Below the pieces are notes generated by a model. It ran no database searches and was not told where the DNA came from. It saw nothing but the letters and a program-made list of their open reading frames with translations. Position numbers and translations under genes: made by a program. Shown here in pieces: positions 1 through 15,973 of a DNA stretch of 64,000 nucleotides; position 1 is the stretch's first letter, and every line of letters begins with the position of its first letter. This DNA is from Candidatus Levyibacteriota bacterium (GTDB lineage: Bacteria; Patescibacteriota; Microgenomatia; Levybacterales; UBA12049): positions 203,485 through 267,484 of the forward strand of contig JACROF010000012.1 of NCBI GenBank assembly GCA_016214555.1, read 5' to 3'.

Positions 1-142
1 CTTTAAGATCAAAATTATTTAAATTTGAAGTATTGCCGAGCAGTGCCCCAAGAGCATTTGCTATTTCATAGCGGCAGATTCGAAGACGTATCTCTTCAAT
101 TAGACAGCTTAGAAATTTGCAGGAGTACCGCAATTTTCTAAG

Positions 143-213
143 CTGCCGAGCAGGGATTCGAACCCCAATAAACGGATCCAGAATCCGTTGTCCTACCATT
201 AGACGACTCGGCA
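143..213 (-). tRNA. tRNA-Gln (anticodon CUG)
   Basis: Hand-folded cloverleaf on minus strand: acceptor TGCCGAG/CTCGGCA with U1:A72 and G73 discriminator (typical of tRNA-Gln), D-arm GTC..GAC, anticodon stem ACGGA/TCCGT with loop TTCTGGA (U33, CUG, purine 37), T-arm with TTCGAAT loop. No encoded CCA. Confidence 0.8.
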
Positions 214-263
214 TTGTTTTTAAGAATAGTTTCCTCAACTGTATTTTAGTAGTTTATTGTTTT

Positions 264-323
264 TTCTACCATTAGACCCGCCTCGACTCGCTAGCTCGTC
301 AACGCGAGGCGGGCGACTCGGCA
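264..323 (-). pseudogene. Partial duplicate of tRNA-Gln 5' end (acceptor+D-arm, ~23 nt) interrupted by a 36-nt GC-rich hairpin (CCCGCCTCG...CGAGGCGGG)
   Basis: Read on the minus strand, 314-323 repeats the first 10 nt of the tRNA-Gln 5' end (plus cgactcggca = 204-213) and 266-277 repeats the following D-arm 12-mer (plus ctaccattagac), with a 36-nt perfect 9-bp-stem hairpin between them. The copy lies 5' of the intact tRNA on the same strand. Confidence 0.55.
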
Positions 324-364
324 ATATGAGTCAGACAATTTTACCAAAAATACGAAGTAAATTA

Positions 365-1498
365 CTAGCTTCGTTTCTTAAGCGAAGATTTTTCTTTTTG
401 AAAGAGTTTGTCTCTAAATGTATCGAGGGGGTTCTCGATAAAGAGCATGAGAAGTATGGATCCTATGATAGCGACAAGGATCGCTGCAAGAAATGATACG
501 GATGGCGAGATAAAAGAAATATTTTGAAAAAGTTTGATGAAAAAAATATGAGAGACAAAGAGAGGATAGGATATACCACCAATAAATGCGTCAATAGCAC
601 TTTTCTTACTGATGATAAAAATTGAGGGAATAGCTAGGGTCAGAAAAAGATAATAAGGAAAAGTTGTCATGTCGTAAATATGCGCAGGGGAGCTGTGGGG
701 AAGTATCGTGTAGAGAACAATGTAAACAATTGTTATTCCACTTATTATCTTATGATAGATTGGCGGTATTGAGAGCTTATGCATTTTTTTGTAAAGATAA
801 TAAGAGCCAATTCCTAAAAGGAAAAAAACAAAATATTCAAAAAATCGGTAAGTGAGCGTTGGCTGCTCCATGTGATGATAAAGATGAAAATAACCAAAAA
901 ATAATAAAAGATAAAGAATAGAAAGTATCACTAGAAATTTTTTCTTCATGTAAAAAAGAAATGGAACAATAAGATAAAAAAGCAATTCAATTTGTAGTGA
1001 CCATGCTTGTTGAATAATCAAAAATCCTGGACCTCTTGATCCTACAGAAAAATAATCAGTTGTAAGTAGTAGGGTAAGGTTTCGAAAAATAAAGTTAATT
1101 GTCTCTAGTCCTTCATGTGTCGTTTGTGGGAGAAAAAAAAGATAATGGGTAATTGCATTGTCAGGAGTGCCAATATGGAAAAAATATTTTATGATGCTTG
1201 ATCCAACGGTTAAAAAAAGAACAACAAAATACAGCGGATATATTCTTAGGAATCGATTGGTAATAAAAGTTTTATATCTCTTTTTAAGTGGGCGATATTT
1301 TGTGTCCAGAACAAGAGACATGTAAAAGCCAGAGATAATAAAAAATGAAACAACAGCAAGAGATTGGTGGAAGAAGCGAAAATTTGTCAGATTATCACTA
1401 TGAAAAGAAACAACGCTTAAAGCAAGAAGAAATCTCACAAATCCCATAAAACTGATTATATACTGTTTTGAGATAAAATTTATAGAAGAGATGAACAC
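365..1498 (-). CDS. Acyltransferase family 3 (OafA/YrhL-like) integral membrane O-acyltransferase
   Basis: 377 aa, ~10 TM segments. N-terminal FHSDNL...F.ISGF region and central QQAWSLQIELLFYLIVP resemble the AT3 family AWSLSVE motif. Confidence 0.65.
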   Translation of the reverse strand: MFISSINFISKQYIISFMGFVRFLLALSVVSFHSDNLTNFRFFHQSLAVVSFFIISGFYMSLVLDTKYRPLKKRYKTFITNRFLRIYPLYFVVLFLTVGSSIIKYFFHIGTPDNAITHYLFFLPQTTHEGLETINFIFRNLTLLLTTDYFSVGSRGPGFLIIQQAWSLQIELLFYLIVPFLFYMKKKFLVILSILYLLLFFGYFHLYHHMEQPTLTYRFFEYFVFFLLGIGSYYLYKKMHKLSIPPIYHKIISGITIVYIVLYTILPHSSPAHIYDMTTFPYYLFLTLAIPSIFIISKKSAIDAFIGGISYPLFVSHIFFIKLFQNISFISPSVSFLAAILVAIIGSILLMLFIENPLDTFRDKLFQKEKSSLKKRS

Positions 1499-1587
1499 TT
1501 TCTGTATTCATAATTAGCCTCGATTTGTCTATTTTGGCCCTCTATATTTGCATTTTTTACGTGTTTTTGATACAGTTGGAACTTCGA

Positions 1588-2460
1588 ATGCGACAAAGCG
1601 CACATAGTCTACGCTTGGCCGTGTCCCTTCTTCTTGGGGCAATGTTTGTCATTCCTGTGGCTTCGACAGCGTCTGCTGCAGGCTCAATTCAACTTTTAAC
1701 TGCATCTCCAATCCCATCTCAAGTAGAATCTGAACTATGCGTTAGAGAGATTCCAAATACTCTCCAAAATTTACCTTTAAGTCTTGTTCCAGAGCAGTTC
1801 CAGCGTGTTGAAACGACTATTGCCAACGCTGTTATCATATCGCAACCAAAAGATAGTCTTGTGAGATCATTTTCTCCTACTCAGACAATCATGACCAAAG
1901 TTGGTCCAGAAGATGTAGAAGAAATAGTTACTGTAACACCAGCTCCATTGCCTGTCGTATCACCAATTATTGCTGCTTCACAGACTGCTATTGATTCACA
2001 GGTTGGATCAGGTAGTAATCTTAGCGCAGAGGTTCTTTATAGTATTGTAAATAGCTATAGAGCACAGGTGGGACTCCCAGCTTTTCAGAAAGACGAGAGA
2101 ATTTGTTCTGTTGCAGCATCTCGTGCTCCAGAGCTTGATGGTGAGATCTGGGTAACACACACAATGCATGCAGGTTTCCATGCGCGAAGTCTTCCTTACT
2201 GGGCGACAGAGAATGTTATCAGTATGCGTACAGAGCAAGAGGCTTTGACTTGGTGGCTTAATTCCCCAGTGCATAGAGCAGCACTACTTGGCAATTGGAA
2301 ATATGCATGTATTGCTTGTAGTGGAAAAAGTTGTGGCATGATTTTTACGAACTTTGATCCAAAAATTGCAGTAGTTACCCCAGTTCCTACCACGCCTACT
2401 CCTCAATCAGCAGGTTCAGCTCCATCTGCAGCCCAGACAGTTACCTCAATAGTTAAATAA
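1588..2460 (+). CDS. Secreted CAP/SCP (PR-1/YkwD-like) domain protein with Pro/Thr-rich tail
   Basis: Signal-peptide-like N-terminus (MRQSAHSLRLAVSLLLGAMFVIPVASTASA) if started at the internal Met (ORF track starts at 1525). C-terminal half matches the CAP-domain pattern (YR...GLP.....L...A..RA......H......EN......W..S..H..ALLG..KYACIAC). Ends in PVPTTPTP linker. Confidence 0.6.
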   Translation: MRQSAHSLRLAVSLLLGAMFVIPVASTASAAGSIQLLTASPIPSQVESELCVREIPNTLQNLPLSLVPEQFQRVETTIANAVIISQPKDSLVRSFSPTQTIMTKVGPEDVEEIVTVTPAPLPVVSPIIAASQTAIDSQVGSGSNLSAEVLYSIVNSYRAQVGLPAFQKDERICSVAASRAPELDGEIWVTHTMHAGFHARSLPYWATENVISMRTEQEALTWWLNSPVHRAALLGNWKYACIACSGKSCGMIFTNFDPKIAVVTPVPTTPTPQSAGSAPSAAQTVTSIVK

Positions 2461-2494
2461 TTATCATTTCCCCACTTTGTGATAGAATCACAGC

Positions 2495-3730
2495 ATGAAT
2501 CTTGCTGCGCGAATGCGTCCTCAGACTCTCTCTGACTATGTAGGTCAGGAGGAATTAGTCGGTCAGGGAAAATTGATCCGTCGAATGATTGAGTCTGATA
2601 GCCTTTCAAGTATTATTCTTTGGGGACCTCCGGGAAGTGGTAAGACGACGCTTGCTTCTATCATCGCTCATGAGACAGATAGTGATTTTCATATGCCTTC
2701 AGCTGTATCAACAGGCAAAGAAGATCTCCAAAAAATTATCAAAATAGCTAAAGAACACACTCTTTTTAAAAAAAAGACAATTTTATTTCTTGATGAGATT
2801 CATAGATGGAATAAAGCTCAGCAAGATGTATTGCTTCCTTATGTCGAAACAGGCCTTGTTACTCTCATTGGGGCCACGACTGAAAATCCCTCATTTGAAG
2901 TAAATAGCGCTCTTCTGTCAAGATGTAAAGTTTTTGTACTCAAAGGATTATCTCAAGATGATTTGAGCAAAATTATTGATCGAAGTCTAAAAGACAAAGA
3001 AATAGGTATGGGAGAGCATAAAAAATCGATCAAAAAAGATGCGCAAGAACTTCTTATTCGTCTTTCAGGTGGTGATGCAAGAGTGGTGCTTAATGCCATC
3101 GAGATGGCAGTAATAAATTTTCCTTCGACAAGCTCAGGACAAGTAAAGAAAAAAGATAATGAGATTACCGTTGATATTATAAGGGAGATTTTTCAGACCA
3201 GGACTGCCGGTCTCTACGATAAAAAAGCAGATGAGCATTACAATATTATTTCAGCATTTATCAAATCAGTCAGAGGATCAGACCCTGATGCAGCGCTTTA
3301 TTATTTAATGAGGATGCTTGAGAACGGTGAGGACCCAAAATTTATTGCAAGGCGAATGATTATTTTGGCCTCTGAAGACATTGGTCTTGCAGATCGCGGC
3401 GCTTTGATTCAGGCAAATGCAGGATTTGAGGCTGTCAATAAAATAGGTATGCCAGAGGCGCAGCTTATTCTCTCCCATATCTGTCTTTACCTTGCTACTG
3501 CTAAAAAGTCACGAAGTGTACCAAATGCTATGACAAAAGCCAAAGAAGCTGTGTATCAGTATCCTAACGAGCCTGTTCCTCTACACCTGCGTAATGCACC
3601 GACTAAGCTTATGAAAGAGTTGGGATATGCCAAAGAGTATGAGTGGTCTGAGGAAAAAGTAGGACCTGCCTCAGAAGATCTCGGTTTTCTTCCAGAGAAG
3701 TTAAAGGGGAAGAAGTTTTATAGAGAGTAA
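2495..3730 (+). CDS. rarA: Replication-associated recombination protein A (RarA/MgsA, AAA+ ATPase)
   Basis: MRPQTLSDYVGQEELVG...ILWGPPGSGKTTLA Walker A, LFLDEIHR Walker B/sensor, C-terminal MgsA helical domain motifs (PVPLHLRNAPTKLMKELGY). Confidence 0.9.
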   Translation: MNLAARMRPQTLSDYVGQEELVGQGKLIRRMIESDSLSSIILWGPPGSGKTTLASIIAHETDSDFHMPSAVSTGKEDLQKIIKIAKEHTLFKKKTILFLDEIHRWNKAQQDVLLPYVETGLVTLIGATTENPSFEVNSALLSRCKVFVLKGLSQDDLSKIIDRSLKDKEIGMGEHKKSIKKDAQELLIRLSGGDARVVLNAIEMAVINFPSTSSGQVKKKDNEITVDIIREIFQTRTAGLYDKKADEHYNIISAFIKSVRGSDPDAALYYLMRMLENGEDPKFIARRMIILASEDIGLADRGALIQANAGFEAVNKIGMPEAQLILSHICLYLATAKKSRSVPNAMTKAKEAVYQYPNEPVPLHLRNAPTKLMKELGYAKEYEWSEEKVGPASEDLGFLPEKLKGKKFYRE

Positions 3731-3742
3731 TTTTATTTTCTT

Positions 3743-3793
3743 TAGGGGTGAAACCCCTAATTTTGGCTTGCTTCTAGGGGTTTCACCCCTAAA
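3743..3793. repeat. REP-like palindromic element copy 1: TAGGGGTGAAACCCCTAA-14nt-TAGGGGTTTCACCCCTAAA
   Basis: Two 18-nt arms that are exact reverse complements of each other. Each arm is itself a small hairpin (GGGGT-GAA-ACCCC). Lies between convergent genes rarA and the 3840 ORF, so it likely also acts as a bidirectional terminator. A second near-identical copy is at 5142-5192. Confidence 0.75.
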
Positions 3794-3839
3794 AAGAACA
3801 AAGCATATAAGTGTTGTTTTAAAATGGGTGGAATCGCTC

Positions 3840-4139
3840 TTAGGAGCGATTCCACTGTGCATCCAATTTTCTGTCAATTGCAGCTCGGTGCTCTTTTACA
3901 AAGAGCATGAGATCTGCGTAATATTCAAGACAGGCGATCTGCTCTTCTGTGAACCAGGGGAGCCTAATTCGGTCTTCAACGATGATTAGGTAAGCTCTCC
4001 GAAAGGATACTTCAGAATCAGGCATGTCAGGATGCCAGTCTTCAGGGAGTTTTGTTGAAAGAGACACTTCCTCGTAAGACATGGGATGTCCCATGCTGCG
4101 GGCTATTTCAACAAGTTCATGAAGAAGCAGTTGATCCAT
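3840..4139 (-). CDS. Hypothetical small cytoplasmic protein (99 aa)
   Basis: Complete ORF with canonical AGGAGG 7 nt upstream of the ATG at 4139. No recognisable family. Confidence 0.5.
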   Translation of the reverse strand: MDQLLLHELVEIARSMGHPMSYEEVSLSTKLPEDWHPDMPDSEVSFRRAYLIIVEDRIRLPWFTEEQIACLEYYADLMLFVKEHRAAIDRKLDAQWNRS

Positions 4140-4383
4140 CAGACTCCTCCTTTTGGTTCCTGTTGTATGACCAGGTTGCCCATGCTCGAAGAGAGATCAT
4201 GAGAATTAGTCCGCCAATGACTGCAAGATAGAAGTTCCATGGTTCGTTAAGTCCAATTAAGGAAAGGAATCCATAGAGAGCGATCGAAAACAAGATGACA
4301 CTAGCTATGGTTATGGTCTGAAATATCATGATAATGAATTGATCTTTCTGTTTATAAAGAAAGCTTTTTATTTTCGAGAACAT
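4117..4383 (-). CDS. Hypothetical small membrane protein (2 TM, ~88 aa)
   Basis: Internal Met (MFSKIKSF..) is preceded by AAAAGGAGG at optimal spacing, so the true start is 4383, not 4446. Two hydrophobic helices. Its 3' end overlaps the downstream ORF start by 23 nt. Confidence 0.5.
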   Translation of the reverse strand: MFSKIKSFLYKQKDQFIIMIFQTITIASVILFSIALYGFLSLIGLNEPWNFYLAVIGGLILMISLRAWATWSYNRNQKEESDGSTASS

Positions 4384-4497
4384 ACAATGCCTCCTTTTAC
4401 TTATATGCTTTGTCAAGGTGCAAGTCCGAAAACGAACTTTGTGCATATTATAGTCTGATATTCTAGGATTGCAATTAGATGCGAAGATAAAAGAGGA

Positions 4498-5130
4498 TTA
4501 TTGTTTGCCTCTATTTTGATTTATCGAGCGTACTTTTTTGGATACTATAGCGCCATTATTGTCGAGGTTGTATAGGTATACTTCGCCAGTTGCTATTTCA
4601 AATTTTGGAATATTTTCATCAGAGATATTATCAAGATACTTGATAAGTGCCCTAAGGGAATTTCCGTGAGCGCAGATTAGAATATTTTTTCCAGCAATAA
4701 GTTGAGGAAGAATTTCTTCTTTAAAATATGGTAGCACACGGTCATAAACGTCTTTTAGAGATTCTCCATGTGGAGGAGGGAAGTCCCAACTCCTTCGATA
4801 TTTCATAAATAGTCCCTCGCCAAGTTCTTTTTGCATCTCCCATTTGTTTTTACCAGTCAGATCTCCATAGTCCCTTTCTGATATAGCAGAAGAAATGATT
4901 TCTTGGAGTAAAGGATTACGCAGTGTCGATTTAATTATTTCTAGAGTCTTTTTTGCTCGAATAAGATTTGAGGTATAGGCAGTGTCAAATGAAAGATCAG
5001 CAATGGCTTCTCCAGCTTTTTTTGCTTCCTCTTCTCCTTGAGGGGTGAGAGGGACATCTGTTTTTCCTGCCCAAACCCCTTTTTCGTTGTAAGTTGATTG
5101 TCCGTGTCTGACTAGTGCGAGGTACGCCAT
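4498..5130 (-). CDS. gpmA: Histidine-phosphatase superfamily, 2,3-bisphosphoglycerate-dependent phosphoglycerate mutase-like
   Basis: N-terminal LVRHGQSTYN catalytic RHG motif, ...LT.QG..EA, C-terminal ICAHGNSLRAL (second catalytic His). 210 aa. Adjacent to eno, consistent with a glycolytic operon. Confidence 0.8.
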   Translation of the reverse strand: MAYLALVRHGQSTYNEKGVWAGKTDVPLTPQGEEEAKKAGEAIADLSFDTAYTSNLIRAKKTLEIIKSTLRNPLLQEIISSAISERDYGDLTGKNKWEMQKELGEGLFMKYRRSWDFPPPHGESLKDVYDRVLPYFKEEILPQLIAGKNILICAHGNSLRALIKYLDNISDENIPKFEIATGEVYLYNLDNNGAIVSKKVRSINQNRGKQ

Positions 5131-5141
5131 ATAGTTTTTTT

Positions 5142-5192
5142 TAGGGGTGAAACCCCTAAAATCAGTTTGTTTCTAGGGGTTTCACCCCTAAA
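5142..5192. repeat. REP-like palindromic element copy 2 (same 18-nt arms, 13-nt spacer)
   Basis: TAGGGGTGAAACCCCTAAA-13nt-TAGGGGTTTCACCCCTAAA in the eno-gpmA intercistronic spacer. Arms are identical to copy 1 at 3743-3793. Confidence 0.75.
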
Positions 5193-6471
5193 GCAGCGCA
5201 TTTCTGCCTGTAAAGACTGCATTATCACCAAGTTGTTCCTCAATTCGAAGCAGCTCGTTGTATTTAGCCATTCTTTCTGATCTCGAAAGAGAGCCTGTTT
5301 TGATTTGACCAGTATTTAATCCTACAGCCAGGTGAGAAATCGTCGTATCTTCTGTTTCCCCTGAGCGGTGAGAGATAATTGCCTTCCACCCAGCTTTTTG
5401 TGCTGTCTGAACAGCTTTGATGGTTTCAGTCAAAGTACCGATCTGGTTTAGTTTTATTAGTACTGCATTTGCTTCTTTTTCGGCTATGCCTTTCTCAATT
5501 CTTTTTGGATCAGTAACAAAAAGATCATCTCCAACAAGTTGTGTTCCATTGCCAGTAAGATGAGTGAGTTTTTTCCACCCCTCAAAATCATCTTCTGCTA
5601 ATCCATCCTCAATCGAGACCAAAGGATAATCTTTAGTCATTTCAAGAAGCCAACCAATAAAAGAATCAGTATCAAGGGATTTATTTTCGGTTTTTAATAC
5701 ATAATTGTTGTTTTCCACTAACTCTGATGCAGCGACATCGAGTCCAAGAACAATGTCTTTTCCCAGATCATAGCCTGATTTTTGGATTGCATGAGAGATA
5801 AGATCAAGCGCTTCTTTATTCCCTCCCTTAACATGGGGTGCATACCCTCCTTCGTCTCCGACTGTTGTAGCATAATTTTTTTCTAATAATATTTTTCCTA
5901 AAACATGAAAAACATTTGAACCCATCTCAAGAGCTTGTGAGAAATTTCCAGCTCCAATCGGAAGAATCATGAACTCCTGAATATCGGTGGATCCAGAGGC
6001 ATGTTTGCCACCGTTTATGATATTCATCATGGGGAGAGGAAGCGAAAATTTACTATTTCCGACCATGCTTCCAAAGTATTGGTAGAGAGGTATATGTTGT
6101 GATATGGCCTCGGCTTTGGCAGCAGCAAGTGAGACAGAGAGGATTGCATTTGCACCTAAATGTGATTTATTTTCCGTTCCGTCAAGCTCTGTCATTCTTT
6201 CATCGAGTTCTTTTTGATTGGCCAAATTCTTCCCTATGATCTCCTGAGCAATTGTCGTGTTTACATTATTAACAGCCTGGTGAACACTTTTACCCTGGTA
6301 TTGACCAGGATCATTGTCTCGAAGTTCTAAAGCTTCATGAGTGCCTGTGGAGGATCCAGATGGTACTGCAGCGCGGCCCTGGGACCCATCTTCAAGTGTG
6401 ACATCTGTCTCAACAGTGGGAAAGCCTCGAGAATCCAGGATTTGCCGAGCGTGGATGTGGGAGATTTTCAT
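5188..6471 (-). CDS. eno: Enolase (phosphopyruvate hydratase)
   Basis: MKISHIHARQILDSRGFPTVE..., SGSSTGTHEALELRD, and the canonical C-terminal IKLNQIGTLTET...SHRSGETEDTTI enolase signature. Confidence 0.95.
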   Translation of the reverse strand: MKISHIHARQILDSRGFPTVETDVTLEDGSQGRAAVPSGSSTGTHEALELRDNDPGQYQGKSVHQAVNNVNTTIAQEIIGKNLANQKELDERMTELDGTENKSHLGANAILSVSLAAAKAEAISQHIPLYQYFGSMVGNSKFSLPLPMMNIINGGKHASGSTDIQEFMILPIGAGNFSQALEMGSNVFHVLGKILLEKNYATTVGDEGGYAPHVKGGNKEALDLISHAIQKSGYDLGKDIVLGLDVAASELVENNNYVLKTENKSLDTDSFIGWLLEMTKDYPLVSIEDGLAEDDFEGWKKLTHLTGNGTQLVGDDLFVTDPKRIEKGIAEKEANAVLIKLNQIGTLTETIKAVQTAQKAGWKAIISHRSGETEDTTISHLAVGLNTGQIKTGSLSRSERMAKYNELLRIEEQLGDNAVFTGRNALL

Positions 6472-6783
6472 TATGAGATTATTATACTGTGATAAGGAGA
6501 AATAACAAGATGAGAGTTGTTTTATGAGGGAAAAGAAGGTATAATGGATAAATAATATAGGACTCTGCTGGGGTTTTAGGCAGAGTTTTTGTTTTTATAT
6601 GTTTGCTGCTGTTCTTTTCTTTCGAGAAAAGAACCAAAAGCTTACTGCTAATGAACGATCGCTAGATTCTTTCGCTCGCTAATCGGGTAATAACACCCCT
6701 TCCGGTCATTCGCCGGGTTTCCCCTGATAGCTCGCTCTAGAATCTTTTACGCGCTGCGTTCGACGCAGAGAACTACATTAATT

Positions 6784-8598
6784 ATGAACATACGAAATAT
6801 TGCTATTATTGCTCACGTTGATCACGGAAAGACAACGCTTGTGGACGCACTTCTCCGCCAGTCAAAGACTAAGCTTGATAAAGACATTGAAGGTTCTGAT
6901 CTTATCATGGATAGTAACGAGCTGGAGCGAGAGCGAGGTATTACTATTTTTAGTAAAAATGCGTCTGTTGTCTGGCAGGGAACTAAGATTAATATCATTG
7001 ATACACCAGGGCACGCTGATTTTGGTGGAGAAGTAGAGCGAGTGCTTACTATGGCAGATGGATGTTTGCTTCTTATCGATGCCAAAGAAGGTCCTATGCC
7101 TCAGACTCGTTTTGTGCTCAAGCAAGCTCTTGCAAAAAAACTTCGAATTATCGTTGTTGTGAATAAAATTGATCGACCTGATGCACGAATTCATCATGTT
7201 TTGGACAAAACTCTTGATTTATTTTTAGAACTTGGTGCAGATGATGCAACTGCTGATTTTCCCATCGTGTATGCCAGTGGTAAAGAGGGAAAAGCTGGAC
7301 TTGAACCCGATCTTTCAACGATGACTGACATTGCCCCTGTTTTTGATGCAATTTTAGAGCATATTCCAGCCCCCAGCGGAGATCCGACAAAGCCTCTTCA
7401 GATGCTTATGACAACAATGAGTAGTGATTCATTTAAGGGACGTATTGCTATTGGACGTATTTACAACGGTAGTATTAAAGCTGGCCAGGATGTCATGCAT
7501 ATCAATCGCCAGGGCGAGATGAAAAAATATAGACTCGTTTCTATGATGACCTTTGAAGGGCTCAATAGAGTTGATATCAAAGAAGCAGAGGCCGGGGATA
7601 TCGTAGCTATCTCAGGTATTCCTGATATCACCATTGGTGAAACGATCGCTGATGTTGCGAACCCAATCGCACTGCCACTTTTGAATATAGAAGAGCCAAC
7701 AGTCAAAATGACTTTTAGCGTCAATACTTCGCCATTTGCAGGTCAGGAGGGTGAATTTAAGACTTCCCGTCAGATAAGAGAGAGGCTTTATAAAGAATTG
7801 GAGACTGACATGGCACTTCGCATTGAAGATCTTCCAACTGGTGAGTGGAATGTGTCAGGGCGAGGCGAGCTGCACTTAGCGATCCTTATAGAGCGGCTGC
7901 GACGTGAGGGATATGAATTTCAGGTTGGTCGTCCACAAGTTATTGAAAAAACTGTTGATGGTGCAAAAATGACACCATATGAACAGCTTTTTCTAGAAGT
8001 CACCGATGAGTACTCAGGTGTTGTTATGCAGCAACTTGGTGGTCGGCGTGGAGAGCTTAAGAATATGTACTCTGACGACAACGGTATTACCTCGTTTGAA
8101 TTCCTCATCGCTACAAAGGATCTTTTTGGCTATCGATCAGAATTTATTACCGATACCAAAGGTCTTGGGATCATGAATGTTTCATTTGACAGCTATAAGC
8201 AAAGTGTTGGTGAGGTCAGGACAAGAGATAGAGGATCGCTTGTTGCATTTGAGAGCGGTGTAACAACGCTCTATGGCCTCACAGGTATTCAGGATAGGGG
8301 AGATCTTTTCATAGGTCCTGCAACACAAGTCTACAAAGGACAAATTGTTGGGCAGCATTCAAGGCCTGATGATCTGAGAGTAAACGTATGCAAAACAAAA
8401 CAGCTCTCCAACATGCGCTCAAAAGGTGATGGTACTATGGAGCATTTCAACGTCCCACATGTTATGGGTCTTGAGGAAGCGCTTGAGTATATAGGGGATG
8501 ATGAATTAGTAGAAGTAACACCCCAGAATGTCAGAATGAGAAAGAAAATCTTGGATGAAGTCGAAGAACGACGCAAAAAAGCTCAGGGCCTCTTATAA
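6784..8598 (+). CDS. typA: Translational GTPase TypA/BipA
   Basis: IRNIAIIAHVDHGKTTLVDALL G1 motif, DTPGHADFGGEVER G3 motif, NKIDR G4 motif; 604 aa with EF-G-like domain order. Confidence 0.95.
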   Translation: MNIRNIAIIAHVDHGKTTLVDALLRQSKTKLDKDIEGSDLIMDSNELERERGITIFSKNASVVWQGTKINIIDTPGHADFGGEVERVLTMADGCLLLIDAKEGPMPQTRFVLKQALAKKLRIIVVVNKIDRPDARIHHVLDKTLDLFLELGADDATADFPIVYASGKEGKAGLEPDLSTMTDIAPVFDAILEHIPAPSGDPTKPLQMLMTTMSSDSFKGRIAIGRIYNGSIKAGQDVMHINRQGEMKKYRLVSMMTFEGLNRVDIKEAEAGDIVAISGIPDITIGETIADVANPIALPLLNIEEPTVKMTFSVNTSPFAGQEGEFKTSRQIRERLYKELETDMALRIEDLPTGEWNVSGRGELHLAILIERLRREGYEFQVGRPQVIEKTVDGAKMTPYEQLFLEVTDEYSGVVMQQLGGRRGELKNMYSDDNGITSFEFLIATKDLFGYRSEFITDTKGLGIMNVSFDSYKQSVGEVRTRDRGSLVAFESGVTTLYGLTGIQDRGDLFIGPATQVYKGQIVGQHSRPDDLRVNVCKTKQLSNMRSKGDGTMEHFNVPHVMGLEEALEYIGDDELVEVTPQNVRMRKKILDEVEERRKKAQGLL

Positions 8599-8690
8599 TT
8601 AAGGTTATCTAAGTGATTTTTCTGTAATTTGTATACACTTCTATTTCACCTCTTGATTTACAAAATCTTCTTTGTGTATAGTTAGTACTT

Positions 8691-9164
8691 ATGGACGACC
8701 AAAACAAAGATCCCGAAGTAGTCGATGCAGAAGTAGTTGAGGAAACTCCACAAGAGCCCCAGGTTGTAGGTGATGCAGCAATACTTCTTAATCTTGAAGA
8801 GATGATCAAGAATTATATTCAGAGCCTTGATAAGCTTCGTGAGGAAAAGAAAAAAATGCAGGAAATGTTTGAAGATTCCTTTGCCAACAATCCCACCTAT
8901 AGAGAGAATTCAGACAAAGCCAAAGAGGCGCTTAAAGTCAAGGCGACGACTCGTCAACAGATTGCGAGTCAACCATCAGTTATTGCTCTTGCACAGAAAT
9001 TAAAAGGCCTTGGTTCAGACATTAAAGAGCGACAGGTGGCACTTTCTGATTATCTCCTCGAATATCAGCGGCTGTCTGGGGCAAATGAGATTGAAGACAA
9101 TGAGGGACAGATTAGAGAGATTATTAATTCAGCAAAACTTATTAAGCGTTCCTCAAAGAAATAA
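8691..9164 (+). CDS. Hypothetical acidic/coiled-coil protein (157 aa)
   Basis: Long ORF in an intergenic position with an acidic N-terminus (PEVVDAEVVEETPQEPQ) and heptad-like central region. No clear Shine-Dalgarno sequence; no family recognised. Confidence 0.4.
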   Translation: MDDQNKDPEVVDAEVVEETPQEPQVVGDAAILLNLEEMIKNYIQSLDKLREEKKKMQEMFEDSFANNPTYRENSDKAKEALKVKATTRQQIASQPSVIALAQKLKGLGSDIKERQVALSDYLLEYQRLSGANEIEDNEGQIREIINSAKLIKRSSKK

Positions 9165-9298
9165 ATTCCTTCGTAGTATCTTTAAAATAGGTAAGGTATG
9201 CAGAAAGATGGGATGTGGTCCCAAAACGACGCCCAAGTGACAGATGTTCTTGTGTCTCTTTCAGATACCATACCCATTTGTTGTTTTATTTGAAAGGC

Positions 9299-9580
9299 TT
9301 AAAGCCCTGATTGTTCGACGATACTTCTGATCGTTGTCGGCCGAGTAATTGTACGGAGAGTGAGTGCTGCTCTTACAAGGTCAAACATTTCCTCGCCGAA
9401 TTTGGCGATAGCCTCTGGCATCGCGCCGTTCACTGAGGTATATGCTTCAAGGGGTTGCCCATCGACCATGACTTCGAAGCCGGAAGCTCTGAAATCACGA
9501 ATCGCATTTATCTGTTCATCTGTAAGTTCAATTTCTTCCCCTGAGGGAACACTTCTGACCAGCTCGATTGAAATCTTCAT
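9299..9580 (-). CDS. Hypothetical protein (93 aa)
   Basis: AGGAGG 7 nt upstream of the ATG at 9580. No recognisable family. Confidence 0.45.
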   Translation of the reverse strand: MKISIELVRSVPSGEEIELTDEQINAIRDFRASGFEVMVDGQPLEAYTSVNGAMPEAIAKFGEEMFDLVRAALTLRTITRPTTIRSIVEQSGL

Positions 9581-9698
9581 AGACTCCTCCTTTAATTTAG
9601 GCCTCGAAACAATTTTCGAGAACCCCTTACTGCCTAATTAAAAATGAAACTAAGCAAAAAGGGATTCTCGAGATTTTCTGCATACCTTTTTAAAGAAC

Positions 9699-9722
9699 AA
9701 ACGTTCAAAAAGAACGTTTCAT
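9699..9722 (-). terminator. Putative Rho-independent terminator downstream of the 9776-10102 gene
   Basis: 8-bp perfect stem AAACGTTC-TTTTT-GAACGTTT followed by a T-rich tract on the minus strand. Confidence 0.3.
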
Positions 9723-9775
9723 GGAGAGAAATATAGCAGATATGAGGTTATTAGTCAAAAAATTATAAGATTGAA

Positions 9776-10102
9776 TTACTCCTTAATTACGTAGCCAAAT
9801 CCCCTGATGGTGTGAAGTAATTTTTTCTGATCATTTTTGTCAATTTTTCGTCTCAAATACCCCATATACACATCAACGACTCTTGTTTGAACATCGCTTG
9901 AGTACTGCCAAATGTGTCTTAGCATCATATCCCGTGTCAAAATTCTTCCTTTGTTTGTCATCAAATATGCCAAGAGCTTGAATTCATGTGGAGTTAGTTG
10001 AATTGACTGATTATTTCGAGTAACTTCAAATGTTTGATGATTCAAAGAAAGATCGGCTACTTTGAGGATATCTGGGTTTTCTGATGTCATGGTTGGCTTC
10101 AT
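9776..10102 (-). CDS. Stand-alone OmpR/PhoB-type winged-helix DNA-binding protein (trans_reg_C domain only, no receiver)
   Basis: LTPHEFKLLAYLMTNKGRILTRDMMLRHIW....RVVDVYMGYLRRKID....IRGFGY is a canonical OmpR-C effector domain. The ORF is only 108 aa and has no REC domain. Confidence 0.75.
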   Translation of the reverse strand: MKPTMTSENPDILKVADLSLNHQTFEVTRNNQSIQLTPHEFKLLAYLMTNKGRILTRDMMLRHIWQYSSDVQTRVVDVYMGYLRRKIDKNDQKKLLHTIRGFGYVIKE

Positions 10103-10211
10103 TATACGGTACGATAATAGGCAATAATGCGACCTTGGTAAGAAATCAAGGAGGAATGCCTGAATGGAGTTAGTATAGCAAAAGCAAACCTAAAATCAAT
10201 GGACAAGAGGA

Positions 10212-10769
10212 CTATTTTTGGTCACCATTATTAGCCTGACGATTTTTTTCAGCGGTCATAATTCTTTGTTGCATTTGCGTAACTGCAGTAATGAGATCAT
10301 TAAGACCTGCTTGAATTTTGTCGACATCTCGCCCAATCTCATCAACATCCTGACTAATTTCCTCAACGTCTTGTTCCAGCTCTTCCTGCTCCTTGTCTTC
10401 AATTTTTTGCTCTTGCTCGTCTTCTAATTCTCGATAGGTATCAACAAGCGCCTGTCTATTTTGTGCGATAAGAATAAAGGTAGAGAGAAAAATTGCCTCA
10501 AGCGATACAATCATTGTTAGGAGGCCATAAGGGAAAGGGTCAAAGGTTGGGATGAAGGGTTTGAGAAAGCCGTGGTTAGCACTAATCCAAAAACCAAACC
10601 ATAGTATATGAAAATAAACAAAAGACATACTACCTGCCCATCTGTTGATGATTTCAGCAAATTTTCCTTGTGCTGAATTGAGTTGTTGGACAAGTTGGTC
10701 AGGTTTTGTTCCCTTATGAAATAAAGAAATGTTAGCGCTGGTTGGTTTTTTTCGATTCATATAATTCAT
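10212..10769 (-). CDS. DUF1003-family membrane protein with acidic coiled-coil C-terminus
   Basis: FHILWFGFWI....FDPFPYGLLTMIVSLEAIFLSTFILIAQNRQ matches the DUF1003 core as I recall it; two TM helices; C-terminal EDEQEQKIEDKEQEELEQD acidic repeats. Confidence 0.6.
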   Translation of the reverse strand: MNYMNRKKPTSANISLFHKGTKPDQLVQQLNSAQGKFAEIINRWAGSMSFVYFHILWFGFWISANHGFLKPFIPTFDPFPYGLLTMIVSLEAIFLSTFILIAQNRQALVDTYRELEDEQEQKIEDKEQEELEQDVEEISQDVDEIGRDVDKIQAGLNDLITAVTQMQQRIMTAEKNRQANNGDQK

Positions 10770-10879
10770 TGTAGGTTCTGAGGCTAATTTGTCAACCCCT
10801 CAAAGCTATTTCATAAGAAAAAATATTTTGGTATTGACATCTAGCACTAATTCTGTTAGAGTGCTAATACTTCAAAAAT

Positions 10880-13258
10880 ATGCAAAGGACAGTACCAGTA
10901 ATTCCAATCCGCGACGGTATTATTTTTCCTAATACAGACTCAGTTCTCACATTTGGCAGGCCTAAAAGTCTTGCAGCATTAGAATCGTCCTATGAGCACG
11001 AAAGGGTAGTTTGTTTTGTTCTTCAAAAAAGTTCTCGTGTTAACGATCCTGAGCCATCTGACCTTTTTGAGATAGGCACCCTTTCTCGAATCGAAAGAAT
11101 GATAAGAGCGGATGGTGAAATCAATGCTCAAGTAAGAGGTCTCCATCGTGTAAAAATTTTGTCTTATGAAAAGCAAGACACTTTTTTTGTTGCTCAAGTT
11201 GAGGAAATCGAAGAGATTGAGGACACATCACCTGAAGTAGTAGCGCTTTGCAATCACCTCACCAATGAGTTTAGACGTGCAATGAATTTTGGCAAATCTG
11301 CAGATTTTTTGGTCTTTATGAATATTATGTCTGAAAATTCCCCTTCAGAGCTTTCAGATCTTGTCGCATCAGCTCTGGATCTCAAGCCAGTTGAGCGTCA
11401 AGAGCTTTTAGAAATGACAAATGTTACAGAGAGGCTTAAGAAATTGGTTGAGTTACTAGCAAAAGAGATACGAGTTCTTGAGCTTGAAAAAAGGATAGCT
11501 TCAAAGACCCAAGAACGATTTGAAAAAGGAGCTAGGGAGGCAATTTTGCGAGAACGTCTCAAGACCATTGAGAAAGAACTGGGAGAAGAAGAGGGTGGAA
11601 GTGAAATAAAAGAGCTGATGCAAAAGATCAAAGAGGCAAAAATGCCTGAGGATGTTGAGGAAAAGGCGAAAAAAGAGGTCAAGAAGCTTGGGCAAATGAA
11701 TCAGTTTAATCCTGAGGCAGGCTATATTAGAAATTATATTGATTGGTTGATTAGCCTCCCTTGGAGTGTTGAAACAAAAACCGAAATTGATATTTCAAAG
11801 GCAGAAGAAATTCTTAATGAAGACCACTACGGTCTTCCTAAAGTGAAAGAGAGAATTCTTGAGTATCTTGCAGTGCAGAAGCTGGCTGGAAAAATGAAAA
11901 GCCCTATTCTTTGTTTTGCAGGACCTCCTGGAGTTGGTAAAACATCTCTTGGTAAATCAATCGCTCGCTCGCTTGGGAGGAAATTTATCCGCGTTTCTTT
12001 AGGGGGAATTAGAGATGAAGCTGAGATCAGAGGACATCGTAGGACGTATGTTGGCGCACTTCCTGGAAGGATTATTCAAGGCATTAAAGATTCTGGTACC
12101 AAAAATCCTGTTTTTATGCTTGATGAGATTGATAAAGTCGGTGCTGATTTTAGAGGAGATCCATCCAGCGCACTTCTTGAGGCACTCGATCCTGAGCAGA
12201 ATACTGACTTTTCAGATCATTATTTAGAGGTTCCCTTTGATCTTTCCAATGTGATGTTTATTACGACAGCAAATCTTTTGGACACTATTCCACCAGCTCT
12301 CAGAGACAGGCTTGAAATTATTCAGTTTGCGGGTTATACCCATGATGAAAAATTTCATATTGTCAAACAATTTCTTCTCAAAAAACAGTTGGAGATGCAC
12401 GGGCTTAAAGACAAAAAGGTTGTTTTAACTGATGATGCAATTAATTTCATTATCAATCATTACACAAGAGAGGCGGGAGTCCGAAATCTTGAACGAAGGA
12501 TTGCCACTGTTTTTAGGAAAGTTGCTCGTAAGGTAGCGGAGGGGAAAAGGGCAAAAATTGTAATTGCAGCAAAAGATATCCAAAAATACTTAGGTCCAAT
12601 CAAGCATAGCGCTTCAGAGATAGAGAAAAAAGATCAGATTGGTCAATCAACAGGTCTTGCGTGGACTGAGGCAGGTGGAGAAATTCTTTTTATCGAGGTT
12701 GCGCTCATGCCAGGAAAGGGAAGTCTTACTTTGACAGGACAACTTGGAGATGTCATGAAAGAGTCTTGCCAGGCTGCTGTTTCCTACATCAGATCTCAAG
12801 CTGATCATTATGGAATTCCTGATAAAGTATTCCAAAAAACAGATATCCACGTCCATGTGCCTGAGGGCGCTGTGCCAAAAGATGGTCCATCAGCAGGTCT
12901 TGCTATCACAACAGCTCTTGTCTCAGCATTCACAAAAATTCCTGTCAAAAGAACGCTAGGTATGACTGGGGAAGTAACTCTTCGTGGGCGTGCACTTGAG
13001 ATAGGCGGAGTCAAAGAAAAAGTAATCGCAGCTCATAGAGCTGGGCTTAAGACCATTTTATTACCTAAAGAAAATAAAAAAGATATGGAAGAAGTACCAG
13101 AAGAAGTACTCAAAGACGTTGAATTTAATTTTGTTTCAAATGTTGATGAGGTATTAGATCTAGCTCTTACGAAAAAACTTCAATCTATACGAACGAAAAA
13201 ACAAGATATTGGCATCAGATCAGGAAAGATAGCTCTCCATCCTACAAAAGCAGATTGA
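10880..13258 (+). CDS. lon: ATP-dependent protease Lon
   Basis: N-terminal LON substrate-binding domain, GPPGVGKTS Walker A, LDEIDK Walker B, catalytic DGPSAGLAITTAL (Ser) and ...K dyad in the C-terminal protease domain. 792 aa. Confidence 0.95.
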   Translation: MQRTVPVIPIRDGIIFPNTDSVLTFGRPKSLAALESSYEHERVVCFVLQKSSRVNDPEPSDLFEIGTLSRIERMIRADGEINAQVRGLHRVKILSYEKQDTFFVAQVEEIEEIEDTSPEVVALCNHLTNEFRRAMNFGKSADFLVFMNIMSENSPSELSDLVASALDLKPVERQELLEMTNVTERLKKLVELLAKEIRVLELEKRIASKTQERFEKGAREAILRERLKTIEKELGEEEGGSEIKELMQKIKEAKMPEDVEEKAKKEVKKLGQMNQFNPEAGYIRNYIDWLISLPWSVETKTEIDISKAEEILNEDHYGLPKVKERILEYLAVQKLAGKMKSPILCFAGPPGVGKTSLGKSIARSLGRKFIRVSLGGIRDEAEIRGHRRTYVGALPGRIIQGIKDSGTKNPVFMLDEIDKVGADFRGDPSSALLEALDPEQNTDFSDHYLEVPFDLSNVMFITTANLLDTIPPALRDRLEIIQFAGYTHDEKFHIVKQFLLKKQLEMHGLKDKKVVLTDDAINFIINHYTREAGVRNLERRIATVFRKVARKVAEGKRAKIVIAAKDIQKYLGPIKHSASEIEKKDQIGQSTGLAWTEAGGEILFIEVALMPGKGSLTLTGQLGDVMKESCQAAVSYIRSQADHYGIPDKVFQKTDIHVHVPEGAVPKDGPSAGLAITTALVSAFTKIPVKRTLGMTGEVTLRGRALEIGGVKEKVIAAHRAGLKTILLPKENKKDMEEVPEEVLKDVEFNFVSNVDEVLDLALTKKLQSIRTKKQDIGIRSGKIALHPTKAD

Positions 13259-13343
13259 GTAATTTTTAGGCATAAAAAAGATGTGCTTTTGATCTTCCGA
13301 TCGGGCGATTTTTATTCAAAATCGTGCACATCATACCCTTTAG

Positions 13344-13649: not shown

Positions 13650-13798
13650 GAGTTACCTCCTTGAGAGCTTACTAAAAGTGCGAAGACGTCCTGAGACGTC
13701 AAGAGTGATATTTTACCTCAAAATTATCTTAAAATCAAGCTATAGGACTAGTTATTTATGGATTTCTTCACATTTTAACGATGTGATATAGTACATTC

Positions 13799-14137: not shown

Positions 14138-14240
14138 TGCATCAGCATCTTGAAATTATTTCATGGATCTCAAATTGGTAACTCTAGAATTGATAGTGGT
14201 CAGAATCGCGGTGGAAAAAATTGAGTTTTGAATGTCCGGC

Positions 14241-14268: not shown

Positions 14269-14269
14269 C

Positions 14270-15183: not shown

Positions 15184-15252
15184 GGCCCCATCGTTCCCGA
15201 TGATCGATGTCATCGGGATCCCGACGGAGTATCGTCGGGGCTAGTGGTTTAG
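15184..15252 (+). pseudogene. Partial duplicate of tRNA-Glu 5' end (first ~23 nt) interrupted by a 46-nt insert carrying two GC-rich hairpins
   Basis: GGCCCCATCGT (15184-15194) and CTAGTGGTTTAG (15241-15252) match tRNA-Glu positions 1-11 and 12-23. Between them lie CCCGATGA-tcgatg-TCATCGGG and CCCGACGG-agtat-CGTCGGG hairpins. Sits immediately upstream of the GIY-YIG ORF. Confidence 0.55.
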
Positions 15253-15256
15253 TAAA

Positions 15257-15514
15257 ATGAGTTTTATGACTTACATTTTACAAAGTGATAAGGATGGAAG
15301 TTATTATATTGGCAGTACCGATAATCTTCAGAAAAGATTAACGGCACATAATAAAGGGTATTCAAAGTACACAAAAAATAAAATTCCTTGGAATATTGTA
15401 TATAAAGAGGAATATGAGACGCTCTCTGGAGCAAGAAAAAGAGAATATTATCTAAAGTCTCTTAAGAGTAAAATTGCAATTTTAAAATTGATCAAACAAG
15501 GCCCCATCGTCTAG
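15257..15514 (+). CDS. GIY-YIG nuclease-domain protein (small URI-domain, COG2827-like), stop codon embedded in tRNA-Glu
   Basis: TYILQSDKDGSYYIGSTDNLQKRLTAHNKG...WNIVYKEEYETLSGARKREYYLKSLK contains the GIY-x10-YIG motifs plus the conserved Arg, His, Glu and Asn/Lys positions. The last 5 codons plus the TAG stop lie inside the first 14 nt of tRNA-Glu. Confidence 0.8.
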   Translation: MSFMTYILQSDKDGSYYIGSTDNLQKRLTAHNKGYSKYTKNKIPWNIVYKEEYETLSGARKREYYLKSLKSKIAILKLIKQGPIV

Positions 15515-15571
15515 TGGTTAGGACACTGGATTCTCATTCCAGTAACCGGGATTCGACTTCCCGTGGGGTCA
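15500..15571 (+). tRNA. tRNA-Glu (anticodon CUC)
   Basis: Acceptor GGCCCCA/TGGGGTC, D-arm GTC-TAGTGGTTAG-GAC, anticodon stem CTGGA/TCCAG with loop TTCTCAT (U33, CUC, A37), T-arm CGGGA-TTCGACT-TCCCG, discriminator A. No encoded CCA. Confidence 0.8.
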
Positions 15572-15973
15572 CTGAGTAACAATTATTTTTTGAACTCTCT
15601 TCTTGATCATATCGCGTATAACGCGAAAATTTTCGATACTACCATCGAAGGGATCTTTTACATTCCAGTAAGTAACTTTTGTGCTTCGCATTACAAATTC
15701 TGGGATCTTTTCTTCAGGACACAGAACATAAATTTGATCTGCATCATCAACCATTTCTTTGGTAACTGTCTTTACTTTCTTATGTGAAACATCAATTCCT
15801 TCCTCCTTCATAACAGTAATGACTGCAGGAATAGGATGACCATATTTAGCTGGGGTGAAATCTAAAACTCCAGCACTTGTCGCATTTGATGCATGTGTAA
15901 AAAAATTATAGTATGCTTCTGCCATCTGACTTCTAGCTACATTTCCAGCACAAATAAATAATAACTTCTTCAT
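15569..15973 (-). CDS. Low-molecular-weight protein-tyrosine phosphatase / ArsC-like (LMW-PTP family)
   Basis: MKKLLFICAGNVARSQMAEA is the CX5R(S/T) P-loop of LMW-PTPs; a DP motif (VKDPFDG) lies near the C-terminus. The Met giving the canonical N-terminus was chosen; the ORF track extends to 16003. Confidence 0.75.
   Translation of the reverse strand: MKKLLFICAGNVARSQMAEAYYNFFTHASNATSAGVLDFTPAKYGHPIPAVITVMKEEGIDVSHKKVKTVTKEMVDDADQIYVLCPEEKIPEFVMRSTKVTYWNVKDPFDGSIENFRVIRDMIKKRVQKIIVTQ

Follow-up and report, generated by a model that had tools for sequence, protein, structure and literature searches.

Why should a transfer RNA (tRNA) gene be preceded by a broken copy of its own beginning? The question is raised by a tRNA-Gln gene of a Candidatus Levyibacteriota bacterium, which lies near the start of a stretch of 64,000 nucleotides (nt) on contig JACROF010000012.1 (positions 203,485 to 267,484; assembly GCA_016214555.1), referred to here as the window. 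On the minus strand, the 5′ end of this tRNA-Gln is duplicated upstream of the intact gene, and the duplicate is interrupted by a GC-rich hairpin. A first-pass annotation had pointed out this arrangement together with a similar one at a tRNA-Glu gene of the same window, and had named two possible origins: recurrent insertion, with the tRNA-Gln locus as the scar of a lost cassette, or a lineage-specific leader feature of the tRNA. Here, we report a comparison with related loci that supports the former. The tRNA-Gln feature is probably a degenerate form, devoid of an open reading frame (ORF), of a cassette that has its seat in the 5′ portion of tRNA-Gln genes. The window is best read as harboring a complete cassette of this kind at tRNA-Glu and a second one at tRNA-Gln that would have lost its nuclease gene.

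The split copy of tRNA-Gln

Along the minus strand, the locus begins with an extended -10-like box (TGGTAAAAT, 346..338), recognized by direct reading 14 nt upstream of the displaced 5′ copy and probably representing the native tRNA-Gln promoter. The copy itself consists of two segments. The first, TGCCGAGTCG (323..314), equals nt 1-10 of tRNA-Gln, i.e. the 5′ acceptor strand, nt 8-9 and the first base of the D-stem, and the second, TCTAATGGTAG (276..266), equals nt 11-21 from the D-stem and D-loop. They are separated by a GC-rich palindromic insert of 37 nt (313..277) with the structure CCCGCCTCG-CGTTGACGAGCTAGCGAGT-CGAGGCGGG and an interior of 19 nt; this hairpin characterizes the tRNA-Gln cassettes as a family. 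An AT-rich spacer of 52 nt without any ORF follows (265..214), at the place where relatives carry a GIY-YIG ORF of 78-84 amino acids (aa), and then the intact tRNA-Gln(CTG) (213..142 according to ARAGORN; Rfam tRNA model with 59.2 bits at 213..143). This gene has the U1-A72 pair and G73, and is succeeded by a terminator-like hairpin with arms at 145-130 and 120-105. The earlier description was accurate in the kind and position of the elements and slightly off in their dimensions: the copy comprises 21 nt (10 + 11) instead of about 23, the hairpin insert 37 nt instead of 36, and the distance to the tRNA 52 nt instead of 54. The insertion point lies between nt 10 and 11, compared with nt 11/12 at tRNA-Glu.

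The matching segments are short (10 and 11 nt), and this is the sole point in favor of a chance duplication beside an unrelated hairpin or of an assembly artefact. The pattern TGCCGAGTCG-N20-50-TCTAATGGTAG has one match in the window and none in 100 dinucleotide shuffles. Perfect 7-bp hairpins with at least six G/C pairs occur at four sites in the 64 kb, of which two lie within tRNA 5′ copies and two are terminators. Folded as DNA, the tRNA-Gln hairpin reaches -11 kcal/mol (z = -2.3), and the 216-nt region around it is more stable than its shuffles (z = -4.2). An independent Logan assembly of run SRR12113407 is identical base for base over the split copy, which is therefore not a scaffolding artefact of the metagenome-assembled genome. 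Finally, the same architecture with a homologous hairpin was found in at least eight other contigs from different samples. In view of these results, chance and artefact can practically be dismissed.

Several known classes of elements were considered for the hairpin and rejected. It is not an intrinsic terminator, as it is followed by TCTAATGG without a T run and no terminator was called. The hairpin GCGGTCCCGACACATCGGGACCGC at 24719-24742, followed by TTTTTTATTT, shows the contrast; it is an ordinary bidirectional terminator between convergent genes and was discarded as a member of the family. A tRNA intron (group I, group II or archaeal bulge-helix-bulge) or a split tRNA does not fit, since the interrupted copy ends at nt 21 and a complete, uninterrupted tRNA follows. 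Rfam contained no matching intron family at E <= 1, and the group I tRNA introns of Patescibacteria (PMC13011429) are unrelated. Dispersed palindromic repeats, such as repetitive extragenic palindromic (REP) sequences or elements resembling miniature inverted-repeat transposable elements, do not fit either: the tRNA-Gln hairpin is single in the window, i.e. in the 64 kb of this genome that were covered, and all its copies in 197 kb of compared sequence (the window and the related loci) lie in tRNA fragments. In total, the Rfam search of positions 1-16000 at E <= 1 yielded the two tRNAs only, beside chance microRNA-like matches on an unrelated palindrome. A generic promoter and terminator scan called nothing at the tRNA-Gln or the tRNA-Glu locus. 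For the sigma-70 part this is explained by the absence of a -35 element; the -10-like boxes emerged only through comparison across loci.

A displaced 3′ remnant and the question of integrase islands

The same tRNA-Gln is accompanied by a displaced piece of its 3′ part. About 60 nt downstream of the gene, past the terminator-like hairpin, positions 34..84 of the minus strand contain TTCGAATC (84..77), an insert of 33 nt (76..44) and CTGCTCGGCA (43..34). This pattern has one match and none in shuffles; hairpin formation by the 33-nt insert is not significant when its folding is compared with that of shuffles. A clear hairpin-split 3′ remnant of tRNA-Gln is present in one of the related loci (L034; L-numbers denote the loci compared). 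The tRNA-Gln of the window consequently bears ORF-less scars on both sides.

Genes for tRNAs are the classical integration sites of islands and prophages, and partial tRNA duplicates are the usual trace of such events. Together with the 3′ remnant at 84..34, this could indicate that the split copy is an attL/attR-type remnant of an integrase island or prophage that was later excised or deleted. There are indeed parallels, such as a tRNA target, restoration of the gene by sequence carried on the element and a partial repeat left behind. The differences are more fundamental: the cassettes lack an integrase, comprise only about 0.3 kb, duplicate the 5′ instead of the 3′ end and leave a repeat split by a palindrome, which is not expected of an att repeat. 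In the window, the duplicated 5′ end lies 52 nt from the gene. The neighbors are an acyltransferase gene and mgsA, no recombinase gene is found between or near the repeats, and the sole gene between the repeats in relatives is the GIY-YIG ORF of 78-85 aa. A recombinase with cargo between tRNA 3′ repeats, the hallmark of an integrase-type remnant, is missing, and we regard this explanation as very improbable.

Relatives of the tRNA-Gln locus with and without the ORF

The first-pass annotation had proposed comparative genomics of the locus, and this revealed the same hairpin-split architecture both with and without an ORF. A metagenome scan anchored on the ends of the tRNA-Gln hairpin and the D-arm found three loci (L028, L029 and L030). 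In L028, the split copy TGCGGGGTCG/CCCGCCTCGACTCGC...CGAGGCGGG/TCTAATGGTAGGAC (slashes mark the borders of the insert) is followed by a GIY-YIG ORF of 82 aa and then by tRNA-Gln(TTG). In L030, the split copy is separated from tRNA-Gln(TTG) by a spacer of only 10 nt, with no ORF. Homologs of the L028 protein are encoded on seven contigs that represent four distinct loci (L031-L037), and each of their nuclease ORFs has a hairpin-split 5′ copy of tRNA-Gln on one side and an intact tRNA-Gln gene on the other. The ORFs of this type comprise 78-84 aa in the Patescibacteria relatives. In L028 and L030-L037, the hairpin always lies within a tRNA-Gln fragment. The hairpin and split architecture of the window are homologous to those of the ORF-bearing tRNA-Gln cassettes.

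As side observations, L029 (1537-1595) harbors GTCG/CCCG...CGGG/TCTAATGGTAGGA just upstream of a CarD/CdnL-like gene on a GC-rich contig, and no tRNA is present in the available 1.7 kb. In L028 (600-1900), three different GIY-YIG ORFs surround one tRNA-Gln, one upstream, one in the 5′ cassette and one downstream; tRNA-Gln appears to be a repeatedly invaded site.

The relatives differ in detail. The tRNA copy is split at nt 10/11 in L028, L031/32 and L036/37, as in the window, and directly behind the conserved D-loop GG (nt 18/19) in L033 and L034/35. The latter contains three tandem hairpins in one fragment (L034, 1365-1480). The window hairpin is closest to that of L034, and both are found at tRNA-Gln(CTG); its interior is co-oriented with L034/35 and inverted with respect to the tRNA-Gln(TTG) loci. 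In L036/37, the hairpin is decaying (CCCGCCTAG...GGCTGG). In L033 and L036, nt 1-10 of the fragment are resident-like, but the fragment shows the cassette-typical T16 instead of the C16 of the intact tRNA. A junction is thereby located near nt 10-16, which fits the 10/11 split point.

The most informative pair is L030 and L031. The two loci are syntenic, sharing dnaX, the split copy, tRNA-Gln and a second (3′) GIY-YIG gene, and the ORF of the 5′ cassette is present in L031 and missing in L030. This is the best evidence that ORF-less loci like that of the window derive from ORF-bearing ones, and with it the view of the tRNA-Gln locus as the scar of a lost cassette has gained substance.

The sister cassette at tRNA-Glu

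The second instance in the window is located on the plus strand. A tRNA-Glu 5′ copy split by a twin hairpin (15184..15252) consists of tRNA-Glu nt 1-11, the hairpin and nt 12-22, represented by GGCCCCATCGT (15184..15194), 46 nt of twin hairpin (15195..15240) and CTAGTGGTTTAG (15241..15252). It is followed by a nuclease ORF of 85 aa (15257..15514; Pfam GIY-YIG with 56.8 bits) and the intact tRNA-Glu(CTC) (15500..15572; ARAGORN, Rfam). The end of the ORF is formed by tRNA-Glu nt 1-15, which supply its last four codons (GPIV) and the stop codon. The D-loop TAG of the tRNA is the stop codon of the ORF (overlap of 15 nt, 15500-15514). RNase P cleavage at nt 1 of tRNA-Glu would strip this stop codon from the nuclease mRNA, which could be a built-in limit on nuclease expression.

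Two further observations concern the same locus. A phosphatase gene on the opposite strand (15569-15973) overlaps the 3′ end of tRNA-Glu by about 4 nt. Inside it, 11 nt (CATTCCAGTAA, 15661-15671) match the anticodon-arm region of tRNA-Glu; this match, located 89 nt downstream of the tRNA, is probably due to chance.

The assignment of the 85-aa protein is clear at the level of the domain, with a PF01541 score of 56.8 bits at a cut-off of 22.6. The catalytic residues expected of the superfamily (Tyr, Tyr, Arg and Glu) are conserved: in 25 homologs, Y17, R27, H31 and E63 are invariant and Y6 is conserved in at least 90%. A profile of these homologs matched best the UPF0213 structures 1zg2 and 1ywl (BH0048 and EF2693; E = 6e-14 and 4e-12), followed by SLX1 structure-specific endonucleases, with only a weak match to I-TevI. 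On this basis, the proteins of the tRNA-Glu locus and of the tRNA-Gln-type relatives belong to the Slx1-like/UPF0213 branch of the GIY-YIG superfamily. The family is large, with 18,830 clusters (50% identity) at E <= 1e-3 and 4,248 at E <= 1e-10. Searches of PADLOC and PHROGs gave weak domain-level matches only and hence no membership in a defense system.

The family across genomes

A species-level scan, in which one genome was taken per species, gave 26 loci. The nuclease ORF ends in or abuts a tRNA-Glu gene in 20 of them, and five of the other six adjoin genes for tRNA-Val, His, Tyr, Pro or Gly; in L023, the ORF lies just downstream of a tRNA-Val/Phe/Gly cluster. Among the nearest nuclease homologs, 104 out of 120 show the C-terminus xx[I/F/V]V, which corresponds to translated tRNA-Glu nt 1-12. 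The nuclease family is tightly associated with tRNA genes. In 17 loci, tRNA-Glu nt 1-11, the twin hairpin and nt 12 to about 27 follow each other 60-90 nt upstream of the ORF. The twin hairpin has the form (T)TCCCGATG..CATCGGGA-TCCCGATG..CATCGGGG and folds in all 19 examples. Its structure has been kept through compensatory changes, double changes being found in 8 of the 17 pairs of the consensus stem.

The state of the two tRNA copies shows which one is functional. The acceptor stem of the downstream tRNA is perfectly paired in 18/19 loci, and the upstream copy mismatches the downstream tRNA in 6/17, so that the upstream piece is the disabled one. A promoter-like box lies upstream of the disabled piece: TA[TAG]AAT occurs within 45 nt upstream of the displaced fragment, mostly at a distance of 14-25 nt, in 18 of 24 loci, compared with 10% of windows of this length chosen at random. 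From this position, the native promoter appears to drive the fragment, the ORF and the tRNA jointly, and we infer that they are transcribed as one unit. In many loci, direct reading reveals that the tRNA-derived TAGGAC provides AGGA 6-9 nt before the ATG.

In two loci, the complete cassette is followed by a second tRNA-Glu. In L014 (2320-2443), a full-length tRNA-Glu pseudogene is located after the ORF and the intact tRNA, and in L012 (2310-2434) a 5′-truncated one; both carry the twin hairpin at nt 11/12. The second tRNA-Glu of L014 diverges from the intact copy along its whole length, which suggests that the resident gene was disabled and an imported one substituted for it.

From these data, a complete cassette would be composed of the native tRNA promoter, a split 5′ copy (about nt 1-21/27), the nuclease gene and the complete tRNA. 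The disabled 5′ copy is split by a family-specific GC-rich palindrome CCCG...CGGG. The nuclease gene (78-85 aa) is predicted to use the tRNA-derived AGGA as its ribosome-binding site, and the 5′ end of the complete tRNA abuts or overlaps the end of the ORF in the full cassette.

The location of the split copy between a -10-like box and the tRNA, where it is probably transcribed, leads back to the second origin named by the first-pass annotation. A host-maintained leader RNA could act as a decoy 5′ copy with a stem-loop and modulate how the tRNA-Gln precursor folds, how RNase P processes it or how stable it is. The kept hairpin stems, the folding of the 216-nt region beyond its shuffles and the survival of the copy without an ORF in two genomes would all agree with such a function. 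Compensatory change in a DNA palindrome, however, needs no selection at the RNA level. Moreover, the interior of the hairpin is inverted between lineages, its copy number (1 to 3) and position vary, and it is decaying in L036/37. Equivalent hairpins are found in 3′ remnants, downstream of tRNAs and their terminators, the architecture follows the nuclease gene instead of the tRNA type, and no Rfam family matches. We therefore consider a functional leader decidedly unlikely. The leader position behind a -10-like box stands, whereas the restriction to one lineage does not: the hairpin-split architecture is spread over Patescibacteria and occurs in modified form in Chloroflexota and Bacteroidota.

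Distant cassettes and the possibility of a mobile hairpin

These distant members reside at tRNA-Val, His, Tyr, Pro and Gly genes, again with CCCG...CGGG hairpins in the displaced fragment. They include Dehalococcoidia (L018), Bacteroidales (L019) and Robiginitalea marina (L022). In five loci, a hairpin of 15-18 nt exactly replaces a whole anticodon or T arm and has nearly the length of the replaced arm (L018, 700-770; L016, 2265-2305; L021, 1945-1990 and 2370-2440; L022, 1945-1990; L023, 2235-2265). In L019, a twin hairpin with the same central GGATCC is sited in the T-loop. Additional hairpins in the D-loop part of the fragment were observed in L004 and L009.

That the hairpin varies in position, is repeated in tandem, occurs inverted and replaces arms suggests that more than passive inheritance is involved. 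One explanation is that the hairpin itself is mobile, as a small palindromic DNA element that the Slx1-like nuclease moves or copies into tRNA stem-loops and that is tolerated only in non-functional tRNA copies; the tRNA-Gln locus would then result from insertion into an old duplicate. A nearly identical hairpin sequence at different positions in close relatives (10/11 in the window, 18/19 in L033 and L034) agrees with this idea, as do the three tandem copies of L034/35, the interior found in both orientations, the additional hairpins of L004 and L009, the exact replacement of arms and the full-length pseudogene of L014 split by a twin hairpin. SLX1 structure-specific nucleases as the nearest solved relatives after UPF0213 point in the same direction. 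On the other hand, in the 197 kb all hairpins of the tRNA-Gln and tRNA-Glu types lie inside tRNA fragments and no free copy of either exists elsewhere. The hairpin type tracks the cassette lineage and the tRNA type, as predicted by co-inheritance, and no mobility is needed for a spacer to flip between inverted repeats or for tandem slippage to occur. GIY-YIG enzymes hydrolyze DNA and perform no strand transfer, so that insertion of a hairpin would require an unknown joining step. On balance, a mobile hairpin is an unlikely explanation.

The occurrence of the cassettes in viruses was also addressed. In viral contigs, the twin-hairpin pattern had no match. The tRNA-Gln hairpin pattern had at least 120, and none of the matches listed was near an uninterrupted copy of its flanks; almost all listed matches were from GC-rich contigs (GC 0.47-0.75, mostly >0.55), and many were followed by T runs. 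A tblastn search with the nuclease of the window against 50,697 phage records gave 17 weak matches, and the one region inspected, in Rhizobium phage RHph_Y65, does not adjoin a tRNA.

Relation to known systems

The closest precedent for the cassettes comes from fungal mitochondria. Mobile endonuclease ORFs (mORFs) in atp6 of Allomyces macrogynus and in atp6, atp9, cox2 and nad3 of Glomus supply a new end for the gene that they enter and push the native end aside (PMC3630166). The inserted end and the displaced one are not always identical in sequence, a sign of transfer (PMC3630166). Common to both are a free-standing endonuclease ORF (of GIY-YIG type in Glomus atp9) with a replacement gene end and the displaced native end, which is kept as a non-functional duplicate. 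In contrast to mORFs, the cassettes reside in bacterial chromosomal tRNA genes and mostly replace the 5′ end. With about 85 aa, their Slx1-like (UPF0213) enzyme consists of the domain alone and is neither of the I-TevI type nor a LAGLIDADG endonuclease, and a conserved GC-rich palindrome invariably marks the piece that has been displaced. Double-hairpin elements have been reported near the Allomyces insert.

A second parallel is SegB of phage T4, a free-standing GIY-YIG homing endonuclease encoded in a tRNA gene cluster, which cleaves the tRNA gene region of a relative without segB and is co-inherited with flanking tRNA sequence (PMC2330249). It demonstrates that a GIY-YIG gene can reside among tRNA genes and that homing enzymes of this class can target tRNA gene regions. 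SegB differs in being larger, I-TevI-like and phage-borne, and neither a split tRNA duplicate nor a hairpin module nor an overlap between ORF and tRNA has been described for it (PMC2330249). In the light of mORFs and SegB, the cassettes are read as homing-endonuclease-like elements, and the finding belongs with endonuclease cassettes that replace a gene terminus.

The nuclease itself belongs by sequence to the same family as the stand-alone UPF0213 proteins YhbQ, BH0048 and EF2693, with which it shares the minimal GIY-YIG domain without the C-terminal Asn motif. A link of the Slx1-like family to RNA has been hinted at only by a fusion with TrmH, the tRNA G18 methyltransferase (PMC1564403). What sets the cassette branch apart is its embedding in tRNA genes, with duplicated tRNA fragments and hairpins.

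Guide-RNA nucleases were compared for the possible way of working only, and no membership is claimed. As with the omega-RNA of TnpB and IscB or the bridge RNA of IS110, a small nuclease ORF adjoins a hairpin-bearing non-coding segment with sequence identical to the target. The guide of IS110 is split into two segments around a stem-loop. By contrast, the cassette fragment could be read as DNA alone, its hairpin interior can be inverted, and the nuclease is of GIY-YIG type instead of RuvC or DEDD. By analogy, the split fragment might be a targeting module made of a split guide and a hairpin scaffold, or the hairpin a module mobile at the DNA level; we hold this to be a speculative and rather unlikely proposal. 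Adjoining the ORF, either upstream (5′ cassettes) or with an overlap at the 3′ end of the ORF (3′ cassettes), the fragment would be transcribed from the tRNA promoter and would pair with a cassette-free tRNA gene, where the Slx1-like enzyme would cut the branched structure. In the DNA-level variant, the hairpin would be a mobile cruciform or single-stranded module that the nuclease swaps into tRNA arms. If the guide reading were true, it would explain how a protein of 85 aa that lacks a DNA-binding domain can give rise to cassette lineages with specificity for genes of tRNA-Glu, Gln, Val, His, Tyr, Pro or Gly, why flanks identical to the target are kept around a CCCG...CGGG hairpin in every cassette, and why ORF-less copies persist.

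Proposed mechanism and its difficulties

For the homing-like cassette that we prefer, the following course of events can be envisaged. The cassette would spread in the manner of a free-standing homing endonuclease gene. Its nuclease would break a cassette-free tRNA gene in the D-arm region, and repair would copy the hairpin, the ORF and the replacement 5′ end from a cassette-bearing allele, with the old 5′ end staying upstream. After fixation, the ORF would decay, following the homing-endonuclease life cycle of invasion, ORF decay and slow loss, and the hairpin-split repeat would remain. This repeat would be hard to delete, because the hairpin cuts it into pieces of 10-11 nt. The hairpin may disrupt the displaced piece, be it as a nuclease target, as part of the direct repeat or in its tRNA-like fold; alternatively, it may be the structure recognized by the Slx1-like nuclease.

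As in mORF-type elements, the tRNA-Gln locus has one intact copy (59.2 bits) and one displaced, non-functional copy (nt 1-21, split). A number of points weigh against the proposed course of events. The endonuclease ORF that separates the two copies of mORF-type elements is missing at tRNA-Gln. It is present at the tRNA-Glu locus, in L028 and in L031-L037, and with ORF-bearing homologous loci at hand, the locus is to be seen as derived from such elements by degeneration and not as autonomous itself. Local alignments of the 52-nt spacer with tRNA-Gln-type ORFs scored within the range of shuffles; since no detectable similarity has been kept, the loss of the ORF is inferred from the relatives. 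Searches with the flanking acyltransferase and phosphatase proteins led back to contigs of the same sample only; they revealed neither an allele of this organism free of the cassette nor a completely empty tRNA-Gln or tRNA-Glu site in a close relative. Activity, target and mobility are predictions from sequence, and a survey of the superfamily from 2006 regarded prokaryotic Slx1-like proteins as repair enzymes passed on vertically (PMC1564403).

The main difficulty is self-targeting: a nuclease specific for the D-arm would also cut its own intact tRNA. In addition, the 85-aa protein lacks a DNA-binding domain to which its specificity for one tRNA could be attributed. Cleavage at a single fixed site fails to predict hairpin positions that vary between 10/11, 18/19 and whole arms, and it equally fails to predict the triple copies of L034, the two orientations of the interior and the additional hairpins of L004 and L009. 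The precision of arm replacement is accounted for by none of the explanations considered.

Other features of the window

The flanking genes are ordinary bacterial ones, e.g. those for Lon, BipA and MgsA. Directly upstream of the tRNA-Glu cassette, an ORF of 225 aa (14270-14947, minus strand) is accompanied by a hairpin at 14236-14260. Its 1-kb surroundings have a GC content of 52%, compared with 36-42% in neighboring windows. The N-terminus of the protein resembles a signal peptide, and at the C-terminus an LPNTG sortase motif precedes a hydrophobic tail; only one homolog (48% identity) was found among 5.8 billion proteins. It is probably encoded by a foreign surface-protein gene that was inserted beside the tRNA.

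A hairpin of 17 nt (TAGGGGTGAAACCCCTA/reverse complement) occurs in four copies, arranged as two head-to-head pairs in the intergenic regions 3732-3802 and 5140-5192. These look like a REP-type paired palindromic repeat and explain the spurious Rfam microRNA matches.

Implications

Neither UPF0213 cassettes embedded in tRNA genes nor hairpin-split tRNA fragments were found to be described in open-access papers and preprints. This widespread kind of cassette is apparently undescribed. If our reading is true, part of a large and common family that is seen as a housekeeping Slx1-like repair nuclease would have to be reinterpreted, and the tRNA-embedded branch (about 40 loci sampled) would be a selfish cassette living in tRNA genes. 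The reading would also account for two features of the examined loci, namely small GIY-YIG ORFs next to tRNA genes and, beside these ORFs, partial tRNA copies. Since a cultured carrier exists with Robiginitalea marina 2V75 (L022), experiments are possible. With its nuclease of 85 aa, its hairpin of 40 nt and its 20 nt of target sequence, the cassette would be a compact system in which to study how a domain-only nuclease locates a single tRNA gene. Essential bacterial tRNA genes would be rebuilt in place by a mobile element that leaves the old end behind as a dated fossil, and these displaced ends would help to trace horizontal transfer and the evolution of tRNAs in uncultivated Patescibacteria.

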